The notes under the pieces were generated by a model that worked only from the letters and a program-made list of their open reading frames with translations, was not told where the DNA came from and searched no databases. Source: an uncultured Bacilli bacterium (GTDB taxonomy: Bacteria > Bacillota_I > Bacilli_A > RF39 > UBA660). From it: a stretch of DNA of 37,081 nt. This document shows positions 3,503-37,081 of this stretch, piece after piece. Each line of letters opens with the position of its first letter. Position 1 is the stretch's first letter. The translations under genes were made by a program, and so were the position numbers. Location of the stretch: the NCBI GenBank assembly GCA_934086255.1, contig CAKOIB010000002.1, positions 1 through 37,081 on the forward strand, in the 5' to 3' direction.

Positions 3503-3576
3503 TGGTGCCGATTAACAGAATTGAACTGTTCTCTGATGCTTACCATGCATCTGTTTTACCACTAAACTAAATCGGC
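3503..3576 (-). tRNA. tRNA-Thr (anticodon GGU)
   Basis: A 74-nt cloverleaf. Acceptor GCCGATT/AATCGGC, D stem GTTT/AAAC, anticodon stem GATGC/GCATC with loop AUGGUAA, T arm AACAG-TTCAATT-CTGTT, and an encoded CCA. Confidence 0.9.
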
Positions 3577-3586
3577 GAATATATAG

Positions 3587-3608
3587 TAAAACCCTTGATA
3601 TACAAGGG
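3587..3608 (-). terminator. hairpin downstream of ssrA (possible weak terminator or processing element)
   Basis: CCCTTG-N5-CAAGGG is followed on the minus strand by TTTTA. It lies between the tmRNA 3' end and tRNA-Thr. Confidence 0.35.
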
Positions 3609-3621
3609 ATAATTAACATAA

Positions 3622-3962
3622 TGGTGGAGATGAGGAGAATCGAACTCCTGTCCAAAAGCAAACTAATTTAAACGTCTACAAGTTTAGTTGATTAAGATTT
3701 TTCATTACTTACAGAATAACCAACAATTAAATAAGTAACTATCTTACTAATATTCATTACTATTCGTAAGAAAAATAGTAATATAGTCTGCTAGGTATTA
3801 CCCTTAAATATTCCCACAGACTAGGAATATAGAAGAGTTTTGCTTTTTTATACTAAGCAAATGCTAAATTTCTGTTTCCAGTTATATTTAATTGTGCATT
3901 TAAAGATTGCCATCTACTTGCAGTTTAAATCGTATTACTCCTGTCGAAACCATATCATCCCC
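3622..3962 (-). ncRNA. ssrA: tmRNA (SsrA)
   Basis: The 5' end is GGGGATGATATGGTTTCGACAGG and the 3' end is GGACAGGAGTTCGATTCTCCTCATCTCCACCA. These form a tRNA-Ala-like acceptor stem with a G3:U pair. The internal tag frame ends ...GNRNLAFA-TAG (about 3853-3897). It is adjacent to smpB. Confidence 0.93.
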
Positions 3963-15225: not shown

Positions 15226-16122
15226 TCACCTACTTATATAGTTCATTATTTCTAATATTCTGTTTAGATCATTATCATTTTCATATGATATTTCCATTTT
15301 TTTATTATTTAGTTTTACTCTTGTTCCAAAATATTCTGATAGTTGTTTTTCTAAATCAATGTACTCGCTTGATTTTTCTTTATGTTGTTTAGTAATTTTA
15401 TTCTTTCTTTCGTATTCACTATTATTTGATGATAGTTGTTCTAGTTGTCTTACACTTAAATTGTCTGTGATTGTTTTTGCCGCTAGTGTTTCTATTTTTT
15501 CTTTATCTTCTAGTTTTGATAATACTCTGGCGTGTCCCATTGTTATTTTATTTGTAATAATTAAGTCTTTTATTGATTCTGGAAGATTTAGTATTCCAAG
15601 GATGTTTGTTATGTGACTTCTTGACTTCCCAACTTTTTTCGCTAGTTGTTCTTGGTTTAAGTTTAATGTTTGCATTAGATTTTTGTATGCTTCTGCTTCT
15701 TCGATTGGATTTAGGTTTTCTCTTTGAAGGTTTTCTAATACTGCAATTTCCATCATTTGTTCATCTGTAAAATCTCTAATTATTGCTGGTATTGTTTCTT
15801 TTCCTGCTAATTGTGAAGCACGATATCTTCTTTCTCCTGCTACTATTTCGTAACCTTTTATGCTTTTTTTGACTATTATTGGTTGGATTACTCCATGTTC
15901 TTTTATTGATTCTGCTAGTTCTTGAAGTGCTTCTTCGTCAAATATTTTTCTAGGTTGGTATGGATTTACTCTTAAATCAGATAGTTTTATTTCTTTTACT
16001 TCATCTAATTCTACTGTTTCCATTATTTTTTCTTCTACTTTGTCATAGTTTATGTCTTCAATGTTGAATAGTTCTTCTAGTCCTATTCCTAGGGCTCTTC
16101 TTGTTTTATTGTTTGTTTCCAT
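15226..16122 (-). CDS. spo0J: chromosome partitioning protein ParB/Spo0J (parS-binding type)
   Basis: ParB N-domain with the GERRYRAS CTP-binding motif. HTH region is GKSRSHITNILGIL...MGHARVL (ParB-like). Directly downstream of soj. The start is set at ATG 16122, after a GAGGTGA RBS. Confidence 0.93.
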   Translation of the reverse strand: METNNKTRRALGIGLEELFNIEDINYDKVEEKIMETVELDEVKEIKLSDLRVNPYQPRKIFDEEALQELAESIKEHGVIQPIIVKKSIKGYEIVAGERRYRASQLAGKETIPAIIRDFTDEQMMEIAVLENLQRENLNPIEEAEAYKNLMQTLNLNQEQLAKKVGKSRSHITNILGILNLPESIKDLIITNKITMGHARVLSKLEDKEKIETLAAKTITDNLSVRQLEQLSSNNSEYERKNKITKQHKEKSSEYIDLEKQLSEYFGTRVKLNNKKMEISYENDNDLNRILEIMNYISR

Positions 16123-16888
16123 TTGCTTCAATCACCTCTTTGGCTAAATTTAGATATGCTTCTGATCCTCTACTTTTTGGATCGTATGCTATTATTGGTT
16201 TTCCATGTGATGGTGCTTCTGTTAATCTGATAAGTCTTGGAATTATTGTATTGTATACTTTGTCTTTGAAATATTTTCTTATTTCTTCGACTACTTCTAA
16301 TCCTAAGTTTGTTCTTACATCTAGCATTGTTAATAGTACTCCTTCGATTGCTAAGTTTGGATTTAGATTTGCTTGAGTATACATTATTGCTTTTAGTAAT
16401 TGGGTAATTCCCTCTAATGCAAAGAATTCGCATTGTACTGGAATTATTACTGAGTCTGATGCTGTTAGGGCGTTTGTTGTTATTATACCAAGTGATGGAG
16501 GGCAATCTATTATTATGTAATCATATTTGTCTTTTATTTTACTAATATGGTATTTTAATTGTTCTGCTTTTGATATGTTTGAGTCTTTATGTTCTAATTC
16601 TATGTCTATTCCTGCTAGGTTTATGTTTGCTGGAAGTACGTATAGATTTTTGTATTTTGTTTTTATTATGGTTTCTTCTATTGTAGATGTGTCATTTAAG
16701 ACGTTGTAAATACTTTTTTCTATTTCCCCTTTGTTTATACCTATTCCTGTTGTTGCATTGCATTGTGGATCTAGATCTATTAATAGAACTTTTTTATTTA
16801 ATAATGCTAATGATGCAGAAAGATTGATACTTGTAGTTGTTTTTCCTACTCCACCTTTTTGATTTATTAAAGATATTACTTTTCCCAT
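16106..16888 (-). CDS. soj: ParA/Soj partitioning ATPase
   Basis: Deviant Walker A motif NQKGGVGKTTT, with ParA-family sequence throughout. Confidence 0.95.
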   Translation of the reverse strand: MGKVISLINQKGGVGKTTTSINLSASLALLNKKVLLIDLDPQCNATTGIGINKGEIEKSIYNVLNDTSTIEETIIKTKYKNLYVLPANINLAGIDIELEHKDSNISKAEQLKYHISKIKDKYDYIIIDCPPSLGIITTNALTASDSVIIPVQCEFFALEGITQLLKAIMYTQANLNPNLAIEGVLLTMLDVRTNLGLEVVEEIRKYFKDKVYNTIIPRLIRLTEAPSHGKPIIAYDPKSRGSEAYLNLAKEVIEANGNKQ

Positions 16889-16982: not shown

Positions 16983-17007
16983 AAAAAAATGCCTATATAT
17001 AGGCATT
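16983..17007 (-). terminator. intrinsic terminator after the noc-like gene
   Basis: A perfect 20-bp palindrome, AATGCCTATATATAGGCATT, overlaps the stop codon. A T run follows on the minus strand. Confidence 0.6.
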
Positions 17008-18250
17008 AAAATTTATTTTTGTCTATTTTTATTATGATTTGATAAACATTATCTAAGTCGAATTCTTGAACATCAATATTGAAACCAAATTTTTCTGTGT
17101 TTTGTACAGCTTGCCTAACGTTATTTATAGCAAATCTTAAATCGTATACTTGATTATAACTTGGTTGTTCTTCTTTTGGTTCATTTGGTATAGTCACTAC
17201 TTGTGATGCAGATTGATTATCATTTATACTTACTGGTGTTTGTTCTTGTGGGTGTGTTTCATTTATAGTTGGTATATTTATTGATTGTTCAGTTTTTATA
17301 GGTTGTTCGTTGATATTTAATGGTTGATTTTGTACATCAGTGTTAACGTTTAGTGTTGGAATTGATGGTTGTGCTATTGATGTATCTGGTGTAGATTCTT
17401 GTCTTAGCATATCAAAAATATTGGATTTTTGTGTTACTTGTTCTGTTTTAGTTTCAGTATTTGTTTCTTTTATTTCATTTGGAATAGATATAGTTTGTTG
17501 TTCTTGTTGATTGGTATTTATATTTGCTGATAGTTGTTCCTTGTTTTGTAGTGCATTTGCTACTATATCATTTTCCATTTTATTTATGTTTTCTTCTAAA
17601 ATATTTTTGTCTTGATGTTGTATTGGTTGTTCTTCTTGTGGTTTTTTTCCAGTTAAGGCCATTATTTCATCATCTAATTGTCTTACTGTTAATCTATTCA
17701 TTATTACTTGGTTTAATAGTTTCTTTTGATCTTCTAAGTTTGAAACATTTAATAGACTTCTCGCATGGCGTTCTGATATTTGTTTATTTAGTAGTGCTGT
17801 TTGAACTTCTTCTGCTAGGTTTAAAAGTCTTAATTTGTTAGCCACTGTTGATTGTGATTTTCCTAGGTTTGCTGCTAGTTCTTCTTGAGTTATATTATCT
17901 AATTTTAGAATTGTTTGGTATGTTTTTGCTTCTTCGATTGGTGTCAAATCTGATCTTTGAAGATTTTCAAGTAAAGCAATTTTAGCTGTTTCTTTATCGT
18001 CTATGTCTCTTACTAATGCTGGTATTGTTGTTTTTCCTGCTAATTGTGAAGCACGATATCTTCTTTCTCCTGCTATTATTTCGTATTTATCACCAATTTT
18101 TCTTACTATTATTGGTTGAATTACTCCATGTTCTTTTATAGATAAAGCTAACTCATTTAATGCTTGTTCGTCAAATATTTCTCTTGGTTGAAATCTATTT
18201 GGCATTATATCGTTTATATTAAGTTCGAATACTTCTTTTTCCAAGTTCAT
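17006..18250 (-). CDS. noc: Noc-type ParB paralog (nucleoid occlusion protein homolog) with a long low-complexity linker
   Basis: Sits in the rsmG-noc-soj-spo0J synteny. The HTH region GKSQSTVANKLRLLNL...ISERHARSLL closely matches my memory of B. subtilis Noc (GKGQSTIANKLRLLKLP...ITERHARALI). The C-terminal DLRFAINNVRQAV...YQIIIKIDK matches the Noc C-terminus. The start is set at ATG 18250 (AGAGGGA RBS). Confidence 0.85.
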   Translation of the reverse strand: MNLEKEVFELNINDIMPNRFQPREIFDEQALNELALSIKEHGVIQPIIVRKIGDKYEIIAGERRYRASQLAGKTTIPALVRDIDDKETAKIALLENLQRSDLTPIEEAKTYQTILKLDNITQEELAANLGKSQSTVANKLRLLNLAEEVQTALLNKQISERHARSLLNVSNLEDQKKLLNQVIMNRLTVRQLDDEIMALTGKKPQEEQPIQHQDKNILEENINKMENDIVANALQNKEQLSANINTNQQEQQTISIPNEIKETNTETKTEQVTQKSNIFDMLRQESTPDTSIAQPSIPTLNVNTDVQNQPLNINEQPIKTEQSINIPTINETHPQEQTPVSINDNQSASQVVTIPNEPKEEQPSYNQVYDLRFAINNVRQAVQNTEKFGFNIDVQEFDLDNVYQIIIKIDKNKF

Positions 18251-18315: not shown

Positions 18316-19017
18316 TTACAATGGTCTATGTTTAATTTTTGCAAAATCTCTTGGGTATAATTGTGATACTTTGTTTATTTTTCTTATTTTTAGTATTGTT
18401 CTTGTACTTTTTTCTACTGGTAATTTGAATTGATACATTTTTTCTAATTTAAAGTTTAGTGTTTTTAGAGCATTTTCAGATTGTAATAATTCATCTTCGA
18501 CTTTTGCTTTTAGAATTATAAAATATCCTTTTATTTTTACTAATTGCGAAGCTAATTCTAGTATTACTGGAATGCTTGCTACTGCTCGTGATGTTACTAT
18601 ATCAAATTCTTCTTTGTGTTTTTTTGAGTATTCTTCTATTCTTGCTGTTTCTACTTTTATGTTTTCTAAGTTTAATTCTTTTATTAAGTAATTTAAAAAC
18701 TTTGTTCTTTTTTCAAGTGAGTCTACCAATGTTACATCTAGTTGTGGGTATGCTATTTTTAAGACTACTCCAGGAAATCCTGCTCCACTTCCTATATCAC
18801 ATAGTTTTGTATTTTTATCTTCAATTAGCGGAGCTGCTGCTAATGAATCGTAAAAGTGTTTTAAATATACTTCTTTTTTAGCAGTTATTCCTGTTAGATT
18901 TATTTTTTTGTTTTCTTCTACTAAGATTTTGTAATACTTATTTAGTTGTTCTAGTTGTTTTTCGTTTAGGATTATATTTATTTTTTTTAATTCTAATATA
19001 AATTCTTCTTTAGTCAT
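18316..19017 (-). CDS. rsmG: 16S rRNA m7G527 methyltransferase RsmG (GidB)
   Basis: SAM-binding motif [10 protein letters not shown], with GidB family length and synteny. Confidence 0.93.
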
Positions 19018-25150: not shown

Positions 25151-25180
25151 ATTATAAGAAAAAAATAGACTAGTTGTCAA
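25151..25180 (-). promoter_or_regulatory. rpmH promoter
   Basis: The minus strand reads TTGACA (25180-25175), an 18-nt spacer, then TATAAT (25156-25151). Confidence 0.5.
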
Positions 25181-25218
25181 TGTTTTTTTTGAAATTAACA
25201 GTTTCAACGTTAATTAAC

Positions 25219-25343
25219 AGTTAATAATTGTTTCATTGTTAATTTGTTAATAAAAAAATTGTTGAAATTTGTTGAAAATTAATTTATTATATATAAACAA
25301 AGGAAATTGTATGTTAATAAGTCTGTTAATAACTTGTTAATAA
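25219..25343. promoter_or_regulatory. oriC left module: cluster of DnaA-box-like 9-mers between rpmH and dnaA
   Basis: TGTTAATAA (the reverse complement of TTATTAACA; canonical box is TTATCCACA) occurs exactly at 25245, 25312, 25324 and 25335, the last three spaced 11-12 bp apart. Near-variants occur at 25219, 25237, 25260 and 25270. All are in one orientation. Confidence 0.7.
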
Positions 25344-25426
25344 CTTTTTTGCTATTTTATTTTTTAACAATTTGTATTACAATGTAATTAGATGCAAATA
25401 CTTTATGATGGGGGAGAGTGGTTTCG

Positions 25427-26800: not shown

Positions 26801-26900
26801 TGTTAGTAAATGTTAATAAATATCCAACTTATTAACATAATAAAATTAGTTTAAACTGTTTATAGATAAGGAAATTGATGACTTATTAACAATATTAACA
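26801..26900. promoter_or_regulatory. oriC right module: DnaA-box-like 9-mers between dnaA and dnaN, followed by an AT-rich tract
   Basis: TGTTAATAA at 26811 (variant TGTTAGTAA at 26801). TTATTAACA at 26829 and 26883, and ATATTAACA at 26892. The very AT-rich stretch 26900-26940 that follows is a candidate unwinding element. Confidence 0.6.
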
Positions 26901-26947: not shown

Positions 26948-28066
26948 ATGAAATTTAGAATTAAAAAAAATGTTTTACTTGAAGCACTTAATAATGTTTC
27001 AAAAGCTTTATCAAATAAGAATATTATACCAATACTATCAGGAATAAAATTTGAACTTTTTGATGATAGACTAGTTCTTACAGCATCTGATAATGATATA
27101 ACCATTCAATCAATTATTGAGAAAAGTGATGATATTGATATTGTTAATACTGGTAGTATTGTTATAAAAGGTAAATATATATTAGACATAATAAGAAAAT
27201 TAGAAGATAAATTTATTAATGTTGAACTTTTTGATGATTATAAGATAATGATTTATACTGAAAATAGTGAGTTTAGTTTAAATGGTATTGATATTAAGGA
27301 ATATCCTCAGATAGATTTATCATTTTCTTCTGATGTTATTAGTTTGCCTGTTAATGAACTTAAGAATATGATTGCTCAAACTAATTATGCTACTAGTATG
27401 GATGAAGCTAGAGTAGTGTTAACTGGTGTTAATATAAAAATAAATGATAAATTATTAGAATGTAGTGCAACTGATTCTTATAGATTAGCTCTTAAGAAGA
27501 TTATTTTATCTGATAGTTTTGAAAAATTGGTAGATATTATTATACCAAGTAAAAATTTGGGTGAATTATTTAAAATTTTACCTAGCGATTTTGATGGTAA
27601 TGTTAATATGTATATATATAATAGTAAAATTATATTCGGTTTTGAAAATATTATTTTTCAATCTAGGTTAATTAGTGGTAATTATCCTAATACAAAGAAT
27701 TTAATTCCAAATGATAGTTTATTTGATTTAAGAGTCAATAGAAGTGAGTTTTATAATATGGTTGATCGTGCTAGTATACTTAATAATGATAAAGATAATA
27801 ATATTATTACTTTAGAAATTAACGATAATTTGTTAAAAATTACTTCAATGTCTTTAGAAATTGGTAAAGTTGAAGAAAAAATGAGTATTAATTGCTCTGA
27901 TAATATAAAAATTTCTTTTAGTAGTAAATATATGATGGAGGCTTTATCAAAAGTTAAGGGTGATGAAGTTATACTTACTTTTGTTGGTGAAGTAAAACCA
28001 ATTTTATTAAAAGAAGCAAATGATGATAGTTTAATTTCTTTAATTTTACCTATTAGAACTTATTAA
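26948..28066 (+). CDS. dnaN: DNA polymerase III beta sliding clamp
   Basis: Typical length and a three-domain beta-clamp sequence (MKF.I.K..L...L..V, C-terminal LPIRTY-like end). dnaA-dnaN synteny. Confidence 0.97.
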   Translation: MKFRIKKNVLLEALNNVSKALSNKNIIPILSGIKFELFDDRLVLTASDNDITIQSIIEKSDDIDIVNTGSIVIKGKYILDIIRKLEDKFINVELFDDYKIMIYTENSEFSLNGIDIKEYPQIDLSFSSDVISLPVNELKNMIAQTNYATSMDEARVVLTGVNIKINDKLLECSATDSYRLALKKIILSDSFEKLVDIIIPSKNLGELFKILPSDFDGNVNMYIYNSKIIFGFENIIFQSRLISGNYPNTKNLIPNDSLFDLRVNRSEFYNMVDRASILNNDKDNNIITLEINDNLLKITSMSLEIGKVEEKMSINCSDNIKISFSSKYMMEALSKVKGDEVILTFVGEVKPILLKEANDDSLISLILPIRTY

Positions 28067-28143: not shown

Positions 28144-28210
28144 TCTTCATATGGTAGGGTATTGGTCAATATATTTTTATATATTAATTTTTGTGTATGG
28201 GGGTGATTTT

Positions 28211-28666
28211 ATGGATTATGATATTAATAGGGATACAGTAATGATTATTCCAATAAATGATAAGAAATCTAGAGTTATTGAAACTAATGGTGATTATATA
28301 GTTGATGATAATGCTTATTCTATTATGGAACGTAGTTGTTTGTATTTCGGAAGTTCATATGAGGGAAGACTTTTGAGTTCGAAAAGTATTCTTGGTAGTG
28401 TTTACAAGGCTCCAATTGTGGTTGAAGAAAGTAGAAGTATTATATTTTTTCCTGTAAAATCTTCAGTTGTAAAACAAAATGTTTGGATTTCTTTGAATAA
28501 TTTAGTTAGTTATAATAAACATGAGAAAAAAACTATTATAACCTTCAAGAGAGATAAACAAGTTTTATTGGATATTCCTTATTTTTCTATTGATAATCAG
28601 GTTCTTAGATCTACTTTGTTAGAATCTGTTATTCGTAGGAGAAAAAACGAAGAAAAAAACGATTAA
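28211..28666 (+). CDS. ComK-family transcription factor homolog
   Basis: IMERSCLYFGSSYEGR, YKAPIVVEESRSIIFFPVKS, NVWISLNNL and FSIDNQVLRS line up with my memory of B. subtilis ComK (IVDRSCRFFGSSYAGRK, HKPPIMVDPSNQIFLFPTLS, GWISHVHV, NSFENQVYRT). The start is set at ATG 28211 (RBS GGGGGTGA). Confidence 0.8.
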   Translation: MDYDINRDTVMIIPINDKKSRVIETNGDYIVDDNAYSIMERSCLYFGSSYEGRLLSSKSILGSVYKAPIVVEESRSIIFFPVKSSVVKQNVWISLNNLVSYNKHEKKTIITFKRDKQVLLDIPYFSIDNQVLRSTLLESVIRRRKNEEKND

Positions 28667-34481: not shown

Positions 34482-34497
34482 TGTTTCACGTGAAACT
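34482..34497. other. parS site a (15/16 match)
   Basis: TGTTTCACGTGAAACT compared with the consensus TGTTTCACGTGAAACA. A TGTTAATAA 9-mer begins 23 bp upstream. Confidence 0.75.
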
Positions 34498-34693
34498 TTT
34501 GTCAATATGTTATTAAATTTTAAATATAATTATTTTAAGTTTGATTTATTTTGTTTATATTAACTTAATTAATTATATTTTTATTTTGCTTTTTACATAA
34601 GTTATATATTAGTTTATAGTATTTGTGTTTTAATATGTATAGTTACAATTGTAAAACTTTTAATTTAAAATTGTTAATAAATATTTTTTTCAA

Positions 34694-34709
34694 TGTTTCA
34701 CGTGAAACA
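34694..34709. other. parS site b (16/16)
   Basis: TGTTTCACGTGAAACA lies inside the 22-bp perfect palindrome CAATGTTTCACGTGAAACATTG (34691-34712). It ends 1 nt before the -35 box of the SRP RNA promoter. Confidence 0.85.
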
Positions 34710-34713
34710 TTGA

Positions 34714-34742
34714 TTGACTATTTTTTGGTTTTATTATAATAT
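34714..34742 (+). promoter_or_regulatory. SRP RNA promoter
   Basis: TTGACT (34714-34719), a 17-nt spacer, then TAATAT (34737-34742). An alternative TATAAT lies at 34735-34740. The predicted start is near G34749. Confidence 0.55.
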
Positions 34743-34748
34743 ATATTT

Positions 34749-34819
34749 GTGCAACGCATAAGATTGAATTAGGTCAGGATTGGAAAATAGCAGCCTTAAG
34801 ATCCTCTATGCGTGTGCAC
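34749..34819 (+). ncRNA. ffs: small (4.5S-type) SRP RNA
   Basis: A single long hairpin, GTGCA.CGCATA...TATGCG.TGCAC. Its apex carries the universal domain IV motif GGTCAGG-ATT-GGAA-AAT-AGCAGCC (compare E. coli GGUCAGGUCCGGAAGGAAGCAGCC). It is followed by T8. Confidence 0.85.
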
Positions 34820-34838
34820 TTTTTTTTGGAGGTTTTTT

Positions 34839-35279
34839 ATGTTATTAAATGAAGACAATTATTACTTCAGTTTAGCTTTAAAAGAAGCAAAAAAAGCGTT
34901 AAAAACAAATAATGTTCCAGTAGGTTGTGTTATTGTTTTTAGAAATAGAGTAATTGCTAAAGCATACAATAAGAAAAATAGTAAAAATATTTCAGTATAT
35001 CATGCTGAAATATTGGCAATTATTAAAGCATGTAAATGTTTAAAAACTTTTATTTTAAATGAATGTACTATGTATGTTACCTTAGAACCTTGTAAAATGT
35101 GTATGAATGCTATTGCTGAATCGCGTATTAGAAATGTTAATTACTTAATTTCTTCCAAATATGAAATTAATTTAAAAAGTAACTATGATCGTATTAGCTG
35201 TAAACAATTTGATGATAATGAATTTGCAGATAAATATAAGAAAATATTGTCAGAGTTTTTTAGTAATATTAGAGGTTAA
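34839..35279 (+). CDS. tadA: tRNA-specific adenosine deaminase TadA
   Basis: CDA-fold zinc motifs HAE and PCKMC. Typical TadA length (146 aa). The start is set at ATG 34839, after a GGAGG RBS. Confidence 0.9.
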   Translation: MLLNEDNYYFSLALKEAKKALKTNNVPVGCVIVFRNRVIAKAYNKKNSKNISVYHAEILAIIKACKCLKTFILNECTMYVTLEPCKMCMNAIAESRIRNVNYLISSKYEINLKSNYDRISCKQFDDNEFADKYKKILSEFFSNIRG

Positions 35280-35282
35280 CAA

Positions 35283-35298
35283 TGTTTCACGTGAAACA
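35283..35298. other. parS site c (16/16)
   Basis: TGTTTCACGTGAAACA lies inside the 26-bp palindrome AACAATGTTTCACGTGAAACATTGTT. It starts 4 nt after the tadA stop codon and is followed by a TTT run. Confidence 0.85.
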
Positions 35299-35370
35299 TT
35301 GTTTTTAAAATAAAATTATATTAATGTATTATGTTCTTAAAAATGTTCATCTAATATAGATATAGCTTGT

Positions 35371-35394
35371 AAATTATTTCCCGGGAAATAATTT
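35371..35394. other. Noc-binding-site (NBS) palindrome 1
   Basis: The 24-bp perfect palindrome AAATTATTTCCCGGGAAATAATTT contains the B. subtilis NBS consensus ATTTCCCGGGAAAT exactly. Confidence 0.8.
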
Positions 35395-35439
35395 TGAATT
35401 GAAAAGTATTATTAAATTGTTAATAAGTATTTATTTTTA

Positions 35440-35455
35440 TGTTTCACGTGAAACA
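35440..35455. other. parS site d (16/16)
   Basis: TGTTTCACGTGAAACA. A TGTTAATAA 9-mer begins 22 bp upstream. Confidence 0.85.
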
Positions 35456-35556
35456 TTAGAAAATATCAATATTTTTAATATTTGTTTATTATTTTAAAAT
35501 ATTTTGTCTTTTTTTTTATTTAAGTAACTGTTTTAATTTTTTGCATTCTAATCTTA

Positions 35557-35572
35557 TGTTTCACGTGAAACA
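35557..35572. other. parS site e (16/16)
   Basis: TGTTTCACGTGAAACA, followed by TTGTTTTT. Confidence 0.85.
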
Positions 35573-35641
35573 TTGTTTTTAGATATAATAATACTGATTG
35601 CTATGATTTTGAAAATACTTATTAATATAAAATTGGGTTGT

Positions 35642-35665
35642 AAATTATTTCCCGGGAAATAATTT
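35642..35665. other. NBS palindrome 2
   Basis: AAATTATTTCCCGGGAAATAATTT, identical to copy 1. Confidence 0.8.
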
Positions 35666-35711
35666 TGAATTGAAAAGCATTATTAAATTGTTAATAAATA
35701 CTTATTTCTAA

Positions 35712-35727
35712 TGTTTCACGTGAAACA
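35712..35727. other. parS site f (16/16)
   Basis: TGTTTCACGTGAAACA. A TGTTAATAA 9-mer begins 23 bp upstream. Confidence 0.85.
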
Positions 35728-35826
35728 TTAGAAAATATCAATATTTTTAATGCTTGTTATTATTCTAAAATATTTTGTCTTTCTTTTTATTAAGTAATTG
35801 TTTTAATTTTTTTTATTCTAATCTTA

Positions 35827-35842
35827 TGTTTCACGTGAAACA
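35827..35842. other. parS site g (16/16)
   Basis: TGTTTCACGTGAAACA, followed by TTGTTTTT. Confidence 0.85.
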
Positions 35843-35910
35843 TTGTTTTTAGATAAAATAATATTGATTGTTATGATCTTGAAAATACTCATTATATAGA
35901 AATAACTTGT

Positions 35911-35934
35911 AAATTATTTCCCGGGAAATAATTT
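35911..35934. other. NBS palindrome 3
   Basis: AAATTATTTCCCGGGAAATAATTT, identical to copies 1 and 2. Confidence 0.8.
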
Positions 35935-35980
35935 CGAATTGAAAAGCATTATTAAATTGTTAATAAGTGCTTATTTCTAA

Positions 35981-35996
35981 TGTTTCACGTGAAACA
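35981..35996. other. parS site h (16/16)
   Basis: TGTTTCACGTGAAACA. A TGTTAATAA 9-mer begins 23 bp upstream. Confidence 0.85.
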
Positions 35997-36082
35997 TAAA
36001 AATGATTTATCAGGTTATCTTAGACATAGACTTTATTACTTTAATTTGATACAATATTTATAGTTGTTTTGGGGGTGATATT

Positions 36083-37081
36083 ATTGCTTATTTAGCTTTA
36101 TATAGAAAATATAGACCAACTAATTTTAATGAGGTCGCTGGTCAAGATTCTATTGTCAAGATACTTAAAAATTCTATTGTTAATGACTGCATTTCTCATG
36201 CTTATTTATTTGCTGGCCCAAGAGGAACTGGCAAAACAAGTATGGCTAAGATTATTGCTAAAACTATTAATTGCTTTAATTTGAATGGAATTACATTTTG
36301 CAATGAATGTGATAGTTGTATTGCTTTTAATAATAAAAATAATCCTGATATTATTGAAATTGATGCTGCTTCTAATAACGGTGTTGAAGAGATTAGAAAA
36401 ATAAGAGATAGTGTTAATTTAATGCCTAGTATATCGAAATATAAAATTTATATTATTGATGAGGTTCACATGTTATCGAGTGGAGCTTTTAATGCATTGT
36501 TAAAAACTCTTGAGGAACCTCCTGCTCATGTTATTTTTATATTGGCAACTACAGAATTTTACAAAATTCCAGAAACTATTATTTCTAGATGTCAATGTTT
36601 TAGTTTTGAACGCATTTCAAACAATGATATTGTTAATAAATTAAAATATATTGTTAATTGTGAAAAAATTAATATTGATGATGAAGTCTTGAATTTAATT
36701 GCAAAATATAGTGATGGTGGTTTAAGAGATTCGATTAGCATGTTAGATAAATTAACTTCTTATTCTGATAAAATTACTGTTGATGATTATTATACTTTAA
36801 AGGGTATTGTGAATGAGGAATATTTAAAATCTTTAACAGATTATATTTTCAATGCTGATGTTTCTAGTATTTTGAATCTATTAACTGAATTGGAAAATTT
36901 GGGTAAAGATATAGTTATTTTATTAGATAGTTTTATGGATTATCTTAAGGATCATTTAGTTTTATATAATAACAACGATTTTGATTCTATTTATAATTTA
37001 ATTCTTGAATTGAATGAATTAGATATATTATTAAAAAGAAGTAGTAACAAAAAAATTATTTTTGAAGTTGGAATTATTAAA
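36083..37081 (+). CDS. dnaX: DNA polymerase III subunit tau/gamma (DnaX), 5' part; runs off the window; apparent non-canonical start
   Basis: The manual translation reads ...IAYLALYRKYRPTNFNEVAGQDSIVKILKNSI...GPRGTGKTSMAKI...IIDEVHMLS..AFNALLKTLEEPP. The frame opens after a TGA at 36047. It has no ATG, GTG or TTG before the conserved N-terminus. ATT at 36083 lies about 7 nt after a GGGGGTGA RBS. Confidence 0.85.
   Translation, partial: MAYLALYRKYRPTNFNEVAGQDSIVKILKNSIVNDCISHAYLFAGPRGTGKTSMAKIIAKTINCFNLNGITFCNECDSCIAFNNKNNPDIIEIDAASNNGVEEIRKIRDSVNLMPSISKYKIYIIDEVHMLSSGAFNALLKTLEEPPAHVIFILATTEFYKIPETIISRCQCFSFERISNNDIVNKLKYIVNCEKINIDDEVLNLIAKYSDGGLRDSISMLDKLTSYSDKITVDDYYTLKGIVNEEYLKSLTDYIFNADVSSILNLLTELENLGKDIVILLDSFMDYLKDHLVLYNNNDFDSIYNLILELNELDILLKRSSNKKIIFEVGIIK

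Follow-up and report, generated by a model that had tools for sequence, protein, structure and literature searches.

Interleaved parS and Noc-type sites between gyrA and dnaX suggest a composite origin-proximal centromere in uncultured gut Bacilli

Which proteins load onto the DNA between gyrA and dnaX in the chromosome of an uncultured Bacilli bacterium? The window, that is, the whole stretch of 37,081 nucleotides that was analyzed (contig CAKOIB010000002.1, assembly GCA_934086255.1), carries the replicon genes rnpA, dnaA, dnaN, recF, gyrB, gyrA, and dnaX. A first-pass annotation had singled out eight copies of the parS centromere site within 1.5 kb of it and proposed that this spacer is the dominant, possibly the only, loading platform for the partition protein ParB. 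The reading that we favor, with a probability of roughly 0.6, is that the gyrA-dnaX interval is a composite origin-proximal centromere, in which eight parS sites serve ParB and three Noc-binding sites (NBS) serve a Noc-like ParB paralog. The sites and the elements among which they lie are as follows; the parS sites were located by pattern search.

34482..34497, no strand, parS-1, 15/16 match, between gyrA and the signal recognition particle (SRP) RNA gene
34694..34709, no strand, parS-2, perfect, 28 bp upstream of the SRP RNA gene
34738..34835, plus strand, small SRP RNA gene (ffs), between parS sites; Rfam RF00169, 60.6 bits against a gathering score of 40
34839..35279, plus strand, tadA (tRNA adenosine deaminase, 146 amino acids), within the array
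35282..35997, no strand, 271-bp tandem repeat, 2.6 copies, 89% matches
35283..35298, no strand, parS-3, perfect, beginning 4 bp past the tadA stop codon
35371..35394, no strand, NBS-1, 24-bp palindrome, core 35375-35390
35440..35455, no strand, parS-4, perfect
35557..35572, no strand, parS-5, perfect
35642..35665, no strand, NBS-2, 24-bp palindrome, core 35646-35661
35712..35727, no strand, parS-6, perfect
35827..35842, no strand, parS-7, perfect
35911..35934, no strand, NBS-3, 24-bp palindrome, core 35915-35930
35981..35996, no strand, parS-8, perfect, about 85 bp upstream of dnaX

All seven perfect copies of the annotated palindrome, TGTTTCACGTGAAACA, were recovered at the positions given for them (34694, 35283, 35440, 35557, 35712, 35827, and 35981), and the copy described as a 15/16 match at 34482 was found to read TGTTTCACGTGAAACT. 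Dinucleotide-preserving shuffles yielded no match to TGTTTCACGTGAAACA (0/100), with 0 expected by chance. The designation of the palindrome as canonical parS is also correct, since it is the exact consensus of the ParB literature, used by Jalal et al. as TGTTTCAC-GTGAAACA (PMC7383237). In line with the statement that the window holds no other site, a search of its 37 kb at up to three mismatches returned a single extra match, a weak one at 26971 inside dnaN. The reported alternation of 115 and 155 bp was reproduced as well (parS spacings of 157, 117, 155, 115, and 154 bp), and its cause is the 271-bp tandem repeat at 35282-35997, each unit of which contains two parS. The description of the array as occupying a single intergenic region was mistaken: two parS follow gyrA and precede the SRP RNA gene, and the other six occupy the tadA-dnaX spacer.

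A second palindrome had been overlooked. The 24-bp perfect palindrome AAATTATTTCCCGGGAAATAATTT occurs at 35371, 35642, and 35911, once per repeat unit and in the longer of the two parS-parS gaps. Its 16-bp core, TATTTCCCGGGAAATA, is letter for letter the NBS consensus, TATTTCCC-GGGAAATA (PMC7383237), which differs from the parS consensus at positions 1 and 6 of each half-site only. Apart from its three perfect copies, TATTTCCCGGGAAATA has no match in the window at up to three mismatches, against 0.24 expected, and the 1.5-kb region thus holds eight parS and three NBS in total. Each repeat unit is laid out as parS, 76 bp, NBS, 49 bp, parS, and about 100 bp. Alignment of the units placed their substitutions in the spacers, while the palindromes were invariant. 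An identical TadA is encoded on 20 contigs, and in those loci that reach dnaX the tadA-dnaX spacer measures either 963 to 965 bp or 692 to 693 bp. Strains of the same species accordingly carry eight parS and three NBS or six parS and two NBS, a difference of one 271-bp unit. From this polymorphism it follows that the array grows and shrinks by whole units, expanding and contracting by unequal recombination between them.

The array lies 7.5 to 10.6 kb to the right of the dnaA-dnaN region and is therefore origin-proximal. Gene orientation and GC skew both switch at about 25 kb in the window. The canonical DnaA box, TTATCCACA, is not enriched in the window (12 found at up to one mismatch, 12.6 expected), so that oriC is placed by gene order and skew alone. 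Another word, ATTGTTAATAA (reverse complement TTATTAACAAT), has 38 copies in the window at up to one mismatch against 8 expected. It clusters at 25180-25370, upstream of dnaA, and at 26809-26893, in the dnaA-dnaN spacer, and it also stands at a fixed 24 to 25 bp upstream of the parS sites at 34482, 34694, 35440, 35712, and 35981. This word could be a DnaA-box variant of the window species (TTATTAACA against TTATCCACA); it is species-specific and has no clade-wide association with parS.

The proteins expected to recognize the two kinds of site are encoded by adjoining genes.

15226..16122, minus strand, parB/spo0J, with an LGIGLEELF-type N-terminal peptide, GERRYRA, ENLQR, a helix-turn-helix (HTH), and a ParB C-terminal domain
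16106..16888, minus strand, soj/parA, ParA-type ATPase
17006..18250, minus strand, Noc-like ParB paralog, 414 amino acids, with NBS-type residues and a C-terminal domain that is Noc-like in sequence

ParB and Soj had been reported at 15226-16888, and both are there: the parB product has a parS-type HTH (GKSRSHITNILGILNL...TMGHAR), and soj adjoins parB. Specificity residues were read with the four-residue code in the numbering of Jalal et al., from an alignment anchored on G170-K171-S172, N178, and R204. ParB has the parS-type set R173/I179/N184/G201, whereas the paralog has the NBS-type set Q173/K179/N184/R201. The published NBS code is Q173, K179, K184, and R201, one lysine at 179 or 184 being enough (PMC7383237). 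In a PDB sequence search, the best solved relative of ParB was Bacillus subtilis Spo0J (6SDK, 2.9e-70, against about 1e-45 for Noc structures), while the best solved relatives of the paralog were Noc structures (7NG0, 7NFU, and 7OL9, 3e-64 to 2e-56, against 9e-51 for Spo0J), so that the two proteins are reciprocal in this respect. Both retain the cytidine triphosphate (CTP)-binding motifs GERRxR and ENLQR. The order rsmG (18316-19017), noc-like, soj, and parB is the gidB-noc-soj-spo0J arrangement of B. subtilis and is kept in relatives at 67% and 51% identity. The cluster lies about 17 kb from the array, on the other side of oriC.

Previous studies have shown that helix alpha1 of Noc is an amphipathic membrane-targeting sequence needed for nucleoid occlusion, and this N-terminal helix has been called extremely conserved among the Noc homologues examined (PMC4331003; PMC8429893). 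The paralog starts with MNLEKEVFELN, and its alignment begins at Noc residue 26-27; it therefore lacks helices alpha1 and alpha2. A search for an unannotated N terminus found no room for a membrane helix, since the end of rsmG is 65 bp upstream, and reading on in frame to the next stop codon adds just 17 residues, which are non-amphipathic. In an AlphaFold2 model, residues 1-205 (the N-terminal and DNA-binding domains) and a small C-terminal domain are folded, and the linker between them (207-369, about 165 amino acids) is disordered, with a predicted local distance difference test score below 50 except in a short helix at 278-283. This predicted helix, NIFDMLR or NIFDRLR at residues 277-283, is the sole conserved element of the linker. 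Its I278 and F279 are invariant in 10 of 10 homologues (57 to 88% identity), and the rest of the linker is hypervariable and rich in Q, N, E, P, and T. The helix is a candidate short linear motif or a candidate relocated amphipathic anchor.

When 1.84 billion representatives were searched exhaustively, the paralog family came out as 150 clusters at 50% identity, all with the same architecture and with lengths of 263 to 821 amino acids (median, 497). In 144 of the 150 family representatives, the PNRFQPR motif begins at residue 15-22, too early for the N-terminal extension to be present. None of the 150 clusters is a canonical Noc; all are of the truncated, long-linker type. Among readable HTH motifs, Q173 is found in 99/99 and K179 in 97/99, and R201 is found in 149/150 representatives. 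The helix-less paralogs are thus a large uncharacterized family and not a truncated gene call.

We next asked how far the combination of sites extends beyond this species. One genome per species (GTDB r232) was scanned for ATTTCCCGGGAAAT followed, after a gap of 48 to 78 bp, by GTTTCACGTGAAAC, and close NBS-parS pairs were found in at least 120 species-representative genomes. Relatives were then compared as 8-kb neighborhoods, including the closed metagenome-assembled genome (MAG) OZ006970.1, with sites counted at up to one mismatch. The comparison of the gyrA-dnaX spacer that the first-pass annotation had called for placed the array at the same locus in at least 119 species. All 119 usable loci among the matches listed share the order gyrB, gyrA, array, tadA, dnaX, ybaB, recR, and holB (tblastn with the window proteins), at GyrA identities to the window of 55 to 96%. 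Their hosts are low-GC (0.22 to 0.35) uncultured gut MAGs labeled Bacilli, Erysipelotrichaceae, Mycoplasma, or Tenericutes. The samples were of human, rabbit, ruminant, mouse, and chicken origin, a few of the bins clearly bear the wrong label, and one member of the clade is listed by NCBI as Bacilli incertae sedis. The counts for these loci are as follows.

gyrA-dnaX intervals of the 119 listed loci, 155 kb: 512 parS and 361 NBS
flanking sequence of the 119 listed loci, 734 kb: 1 parS and 43 NBS

The 119 listed genomes together hold 404 NBS, 359 of them perfect, and most of the 43 NBS in the flanks fall at one recurrent place inside dnaX. Across the clade, the gyrA-tadA spacer holds 373 parS and 263 NBS and the tadA-dnaX spacer holds 69 parS and 45 NBS; the window species has shifted its main array into the latter. 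Clade-wide logos extended parS to A-parS-T (94%), that is, 18 bp, and NBS to AAAT-NBS-ATTT (80 to 93%), that is, 24 bp, where A makes up about 37% of the background. Within 60 bp of a parS, NBS words were the k-mers shared most widely, as parS words were near an NBS. A search of the 119 intervals for a third conserved motif, among words with at least three G or C, returned SRP RNA words only.

These counts bear on whether the palindromes might be a dispersed repetitive extragenic palindromic (REP)-like or mobile element, or a hairpin terminator or attenuator for ffs, tadA, or dnaX. When single-stranded, the palindromes do fold as hairpins (z = -3.2 and -5.0). However, about 57 kb of contiguous sequence around oriC in the window species (the window with its left flank, L131, and its right flank, L121) contained no further parS or NBS at up to two mismatches, and 512 of the 513 parS of the relatives lie in one syntenic interval. 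A terminator scan of the array region found the gyrA terminator alone, promoter-like sites there were not significantly enriched (28 against 19 +/- 5), the other conserved words of the interval all belong to the SRP RNA, and the array has no plasmid match. We regard an explanation of this kind as extremely improbable. The REP-like element, which the first-pass annotation had itself named as the finding that would overturn its proposal, is ruled out by the strict positional restriction of parS.

The distribution of NBS beyond the array was examined in metagenomes, with a strict 20-bp extended NBS as the probe; at least 120 loci were found, and loci without the queried origin-region genes were counted as lying elsewhere. 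Among the loci listed, 6 were high-GC and came from other organisms and 114 were low-GC; of the latter, 100 carried oriC-region genes, 2 were short pure arrays, and 12 had neither. Among the matches listed, 96 of 229 NBS lay within 300 bp of a parS, and the others recurred at the 3' part of dnaX, the recF/gyrB junction, PSP1/pth, jag/mnmE, and mnmE/mnmG. Isolated NBS numbered 11 at recF/gyrB, 12 at PSP1/pth, 10 at jag/mnmE, and 7 at mnmE/mnmG in the listed metagenome loci (L136 to L255). They look like a small origin-region set additional to the main array, and none of these recurrent spots is occupied in the window species. In two relatives, the 21 kb around noc-soj-parB held no parS or NBS, so that parB, unlike that of B. 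subtilis, is without parS. The NBS of the clade are concentrated in roughly 45 kb around oriC.

In a second alternative, the paralog would be a Noc of the usual kind, anchoring NBS-bearing DNA at the membrane and preventing Z rings from assembling, and the array would be a strong cluster of NBS whose position beside parS is coincidental. In favor of this, the NBS consensus and the specificity residues are those of Noc, the C-terminal domain and the gene order rsmG-noc-soj-parB also match, and the linker helix NIFDMLR could serve as a relocated amphipathic anchor. The NBS of B. subtilis and Staphylococcus aureus are likewise biased toward the origin (PMC5540599), and in B. subtilis Spo0J and Noc act in concert to keep Z rings from forming too early (PMC6852036). 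However, the N-terminal amphipathic helix that occlusion requires is absent here and in 144 of the 150 family representatives, and the paralog scores 297.7 bits on the NCBIfam Noc model TIGR04285, under its cut-off of 315. Furthermore, the NBS of the clade keep to the 45 kb near oriC and do not extend across the chromosome arms, whereas those of B. subtilis and S. aureus spread across the origin-proximal half to two thirds of the chromosome (PMC7383237; PMC5540599). Classical nucleoid occlusion is therefore an unlikely account of this locus.

An NBS is also embedded in the coding sequence of dnaX, just past the ATPase domains, in 31 genomes (L006, L009, L015, L017, L021, L026, and about 25 more). 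These sites are perfect or near-perfect and are read in frame as IISREII at 30 of 32 sites. They lie at offsets of 24 to 255 bp past the conserved N-terminal domains, within a protein linker that is not conserved, which argues for selection on the DNA site and not on the peptide. The window species has no such site in dnaX (L121).

Judged on the window alone, the interval could be a pure ParB centromere whose CCCGGG palindromes are passengers of the repeat unit and have no protein partner: parS outnumber NBS by 8 to 3, and all three NBS lie within one recently duplicated 271-bp unit, in which they might have hitchhiked. Across the 119 listed genomes, however, the 404 NBS lie in unrelated spacers and in repeat units of 51 to 393 bp, and their flanks are conserved as a 24-bp palindrome. 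The same genomes encode a cognate paralog with invariant Q173, K179, and R201, and the retention of in-frame NBS at varying positions inside dnaX in about 31 genomes implies selection at the DNA level. A pure ParB centromere thus appears quite improbable. The first-pass proposal of a ParB platform stands insofar as the sites are consensus parS, a cognate ParB is encoded, and all but one of the sampled parS of relatives lie in the interval; it fails as a platform for ParB alone, given the interleaved NBS and the Noc-like paralog.

The two site types are closely intermingled. Among neighboring sites, 527 of 754 adjacencies join unlike types, compared with 390 +/- 12 in label shuffles (maximum, 427). 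The two types come within 60 bp of each other in 97 of the 119 listed genomes, and in the densest arrays (L093) sites are 26 to 36 bp apart, start to start. Tandem repeats with a period of at least 40 bp are present in 36 of 120 listed loci, with units of 51 to 393 bp, most of which hold one parS and one NBS, two of each, or two parS and one NBS. In the other listed loci, the spacers are non-repetitive and diverged while the sites persist, pointing to selection on the sites and not to recent copying.

Such an arrangement might also be a historical accident, in which both site types were present in an ancestral gyrA-dnaX spacer, were co-amplified in tandem by neutral processes, and serve proteins that act independently. 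The repeats, with both site types in most units, fit this account, as does the difference in array copy number between strains, and duplication of a unit with one parS and one NBS yields alternation automatically. In contrast, both site types are retained down to 55% GyrA identity, where the spacers can no longer be aligned, and arrays have relocated from one of the two spacers flanking tadA to the other with both site types on board. The proximity of NBS to parS in most listed genomes and the spacing of 26 to 36 bp likewise speak against it. On balance, we doubt that neutral co-amplification accounts for the arrays.

Collectively, these findings suggest that the gyrA-dnaX interval is a composite centromere for two proteins, which might work as follows. 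As predicted by the four-residue specificity code, ParB and the paralog would each nucleate on their own site only. The GERRxR and ENLQR motifs, together with what is known of the family, suggest that each protein would then bind CTP, close to a clamp, and slide onto the adjoining DNA. With loading sites interleaved at about 50 to 160 bp, both clamp populations would enter the same few kilobases beside oriC and may form one mixed nucleoprotein domain. The ParB share would support Soj/ParA-coupled segregation and presumably SMC loading. Without an N-terminal membrane helix the paralog cannot act as a classical Noc; more speculatively, its linker and short helix might recruit some other partner, or the membrane, to the origin domain. 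Such recruitment could couple origin position to the control of division or replication. Noc of S. aureus restrains replication initiation (PMC5540599), and this result, together with the joint action of Spo0J and Noc in B. subtilis, makes such a coupling plausible.

Several points weigh against this interpretation. Everything in it beyond the presence of the sites and the matching specificity residues is inference. At residue 184 the paralogs have N, S, T, or A, whereas canonical Noc has K. Duplication of a mixed unit accounts in part for the interleaving statistic, which does not prove selection for alternation. The metagenome census with a strict 20-mer NBS would miss degenerate dispersed sites. 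Finally, if the NIFDMLR helix were a relocated membrane anchor, the system could come nearer to classical nucleoid occlusion.

At the level of the clade, we tentatively suggest, at somewhat less than even odds, that these gut Bacilli possess a two-paralog centromere, on which ParB and a truncated, long-linker Noc-like clamp are deliberately co-loaded, and in which the Noc lineage acts as an organizer of the origin domain and not as a chromosome-wide occlusion factor. The clade may preserve an intermediate that followed the duplication of parB, in which the new DNA specificity had arisen and membrane targeting and site dispersal had not yet evolved. Alternatively, its paralog may be a derived repurposing of Noc.

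Other features of the region were recorded along the way. DnaX has its conserved N terminus (ALYRKYRPTNFNEVAGQ...GPRGTGKTS) encoded ahead of any in-frame ATG, GTG, or TTG (window 36050-36244), and public dnaX gene calls, which begin at the ATG at 36242, leave out the Walker A motif. Translation probably begins instead at an ATT codon, at 36080 or 36083, which follows a GGGGGTGA ribosome-binding site. A ComK-family gene (PF06338, 3.8e-34) lies at 28151-28666, between dnaN and recF, and was found by tblastn at the same position in 19 of the 19 related genome loci that reach that far. The flanks, 10 kb to the left of the window and the sequence to its right, encode MreB, a CotE-family protein, and a SpoVT-like regulator, so that this small low-GC genome seems to keep rod-shape genes and possibly sporulation-related genes. 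An ordinary transfer-messenger RNA gene (156 bits) and an adjoining tRNA gene lie at 3506-3962, beside smpB and the gene for RNase R.

ParB and Noc are a textbook case of a duplicated DNA-binding protein that gained a new site and a new job, and in model organisms their sites are spatially separate, with parS at the origin and NBS over the arms. The clade described here is a natural multispecies system in which both site types are interleaved, sometimes 26 to 36 bp apart, and the Noc-like partner has no membrane helix. It raises the questions of whether two different CTP clamps on one DNA track share it, obstruct one another, or cooperate; what role a Noc that lacks the membrane anchor plays; in which order the specificity switch, membrane targeting, and site dispersal evolved; and why centromere sites cluster. 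These questions are directly testable with synthetic genes and the 271-bp DNA unit. The two proteins and their sites also offer a compact natural orthogonal pair for DNA-labeling tools, which already use ParB-parS and Noc-NBS. The individual elements, parS, NBS, ParB, and Noc, are already known, as are multi-parS centromeres of up to 20 to 23 sites (PMC7333895). Three findings appear to be undescribed: that parS and NBS are interleaved, that this arrangement is conserved at the same locus across at least 119 species, and that a large family of helix-less, long-linker Noc-like proteins exists. Searches of the open-access full-text literature yielded no account of either interleaved parS/NBS arrays or Noc homologues without the helix, which is no proof of novelty.

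Among known systems, Spo0J/Soj-parS of B. subtilis resembles the present one in its consensus, origin-proximal parS, in R173 and G201 of ParB, in the CTP motifs and the ParA-interacting N-terminal peptide, and in the adjoining soj. It differs in that B. subtilis has parS in its parB region, whereas here there is none in or near parB, and the parS are interleaved with the sites of a second paralog. Chromosomal ParABS systems of Bacillota have a few sites over tens to hundreds of kilobases, in contrast to the eight sites in 1.5 kb, arranged as a tandem repeat, seen here. Many parS copies near the origin are a feature shared with multi-parS centromeres such as those of Streptomyces coelicolor and Listeria innocua, which have 20 to 23 parS near ori; the same review suggests that new parS are confined to the native centromere region in a self-reinforcing way (PMC7333895). 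In those centromeres, however, the sites are scattered among genes and serve one protein, while here head-to-tail units in one spacer carry two specificities.

The Noc-NBS systems of B. subtilis and S. aureus share with this locus the exact NBS consensus, Q173, K179, and R201, the CTP motifs, the Noc-type C-terminal domain, and a gene between rsmG and soj. Unlike them, the paralog has no alpha1 or alpha2 and carries an inserted disordered linker, of about 165 amino acids in the window protein and of widely varying length in the family, and its NBS are clustered with parS near oriC instead of being scattered over a large part of the chromosome.

The centromere sopC of plasmid F is likewise iterated, with tandem near-identical units that each contain a ParB-family binding palindrome and that vary in copy number. 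The first-pass annotation had likened the array to a plasmid centromere, and in organization the likeness is real. It does not extend to origin: a blastn search of PLSDB with the repeat gave no match, and the window carries dnaA, dnaN, recF, gyrB, and gyrA, so that a plasmid source of the array was rejected. Unlike sopC, the array consists of chromosomal-type parS beside dnaA, dnaN, and gyrBA and involves two proteins.

A ParB-family clamp paired with a second protein is found in KorB-KorA of plasmid RK2. KorA is not a ParB paralog, the pair silences genes and does not organize an origin, and we know of no array of alternating sites in that system. KorB is described as a CTP-dependent sliding clamp of the ParB family that cooperates with KorA as a "clamp-locking" protein (PMC11790492). 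KorB-KorA is thus a precedent for heterologous sites that shape the distribution of a clamp and for a ParB-family clamp that works with a second protein.

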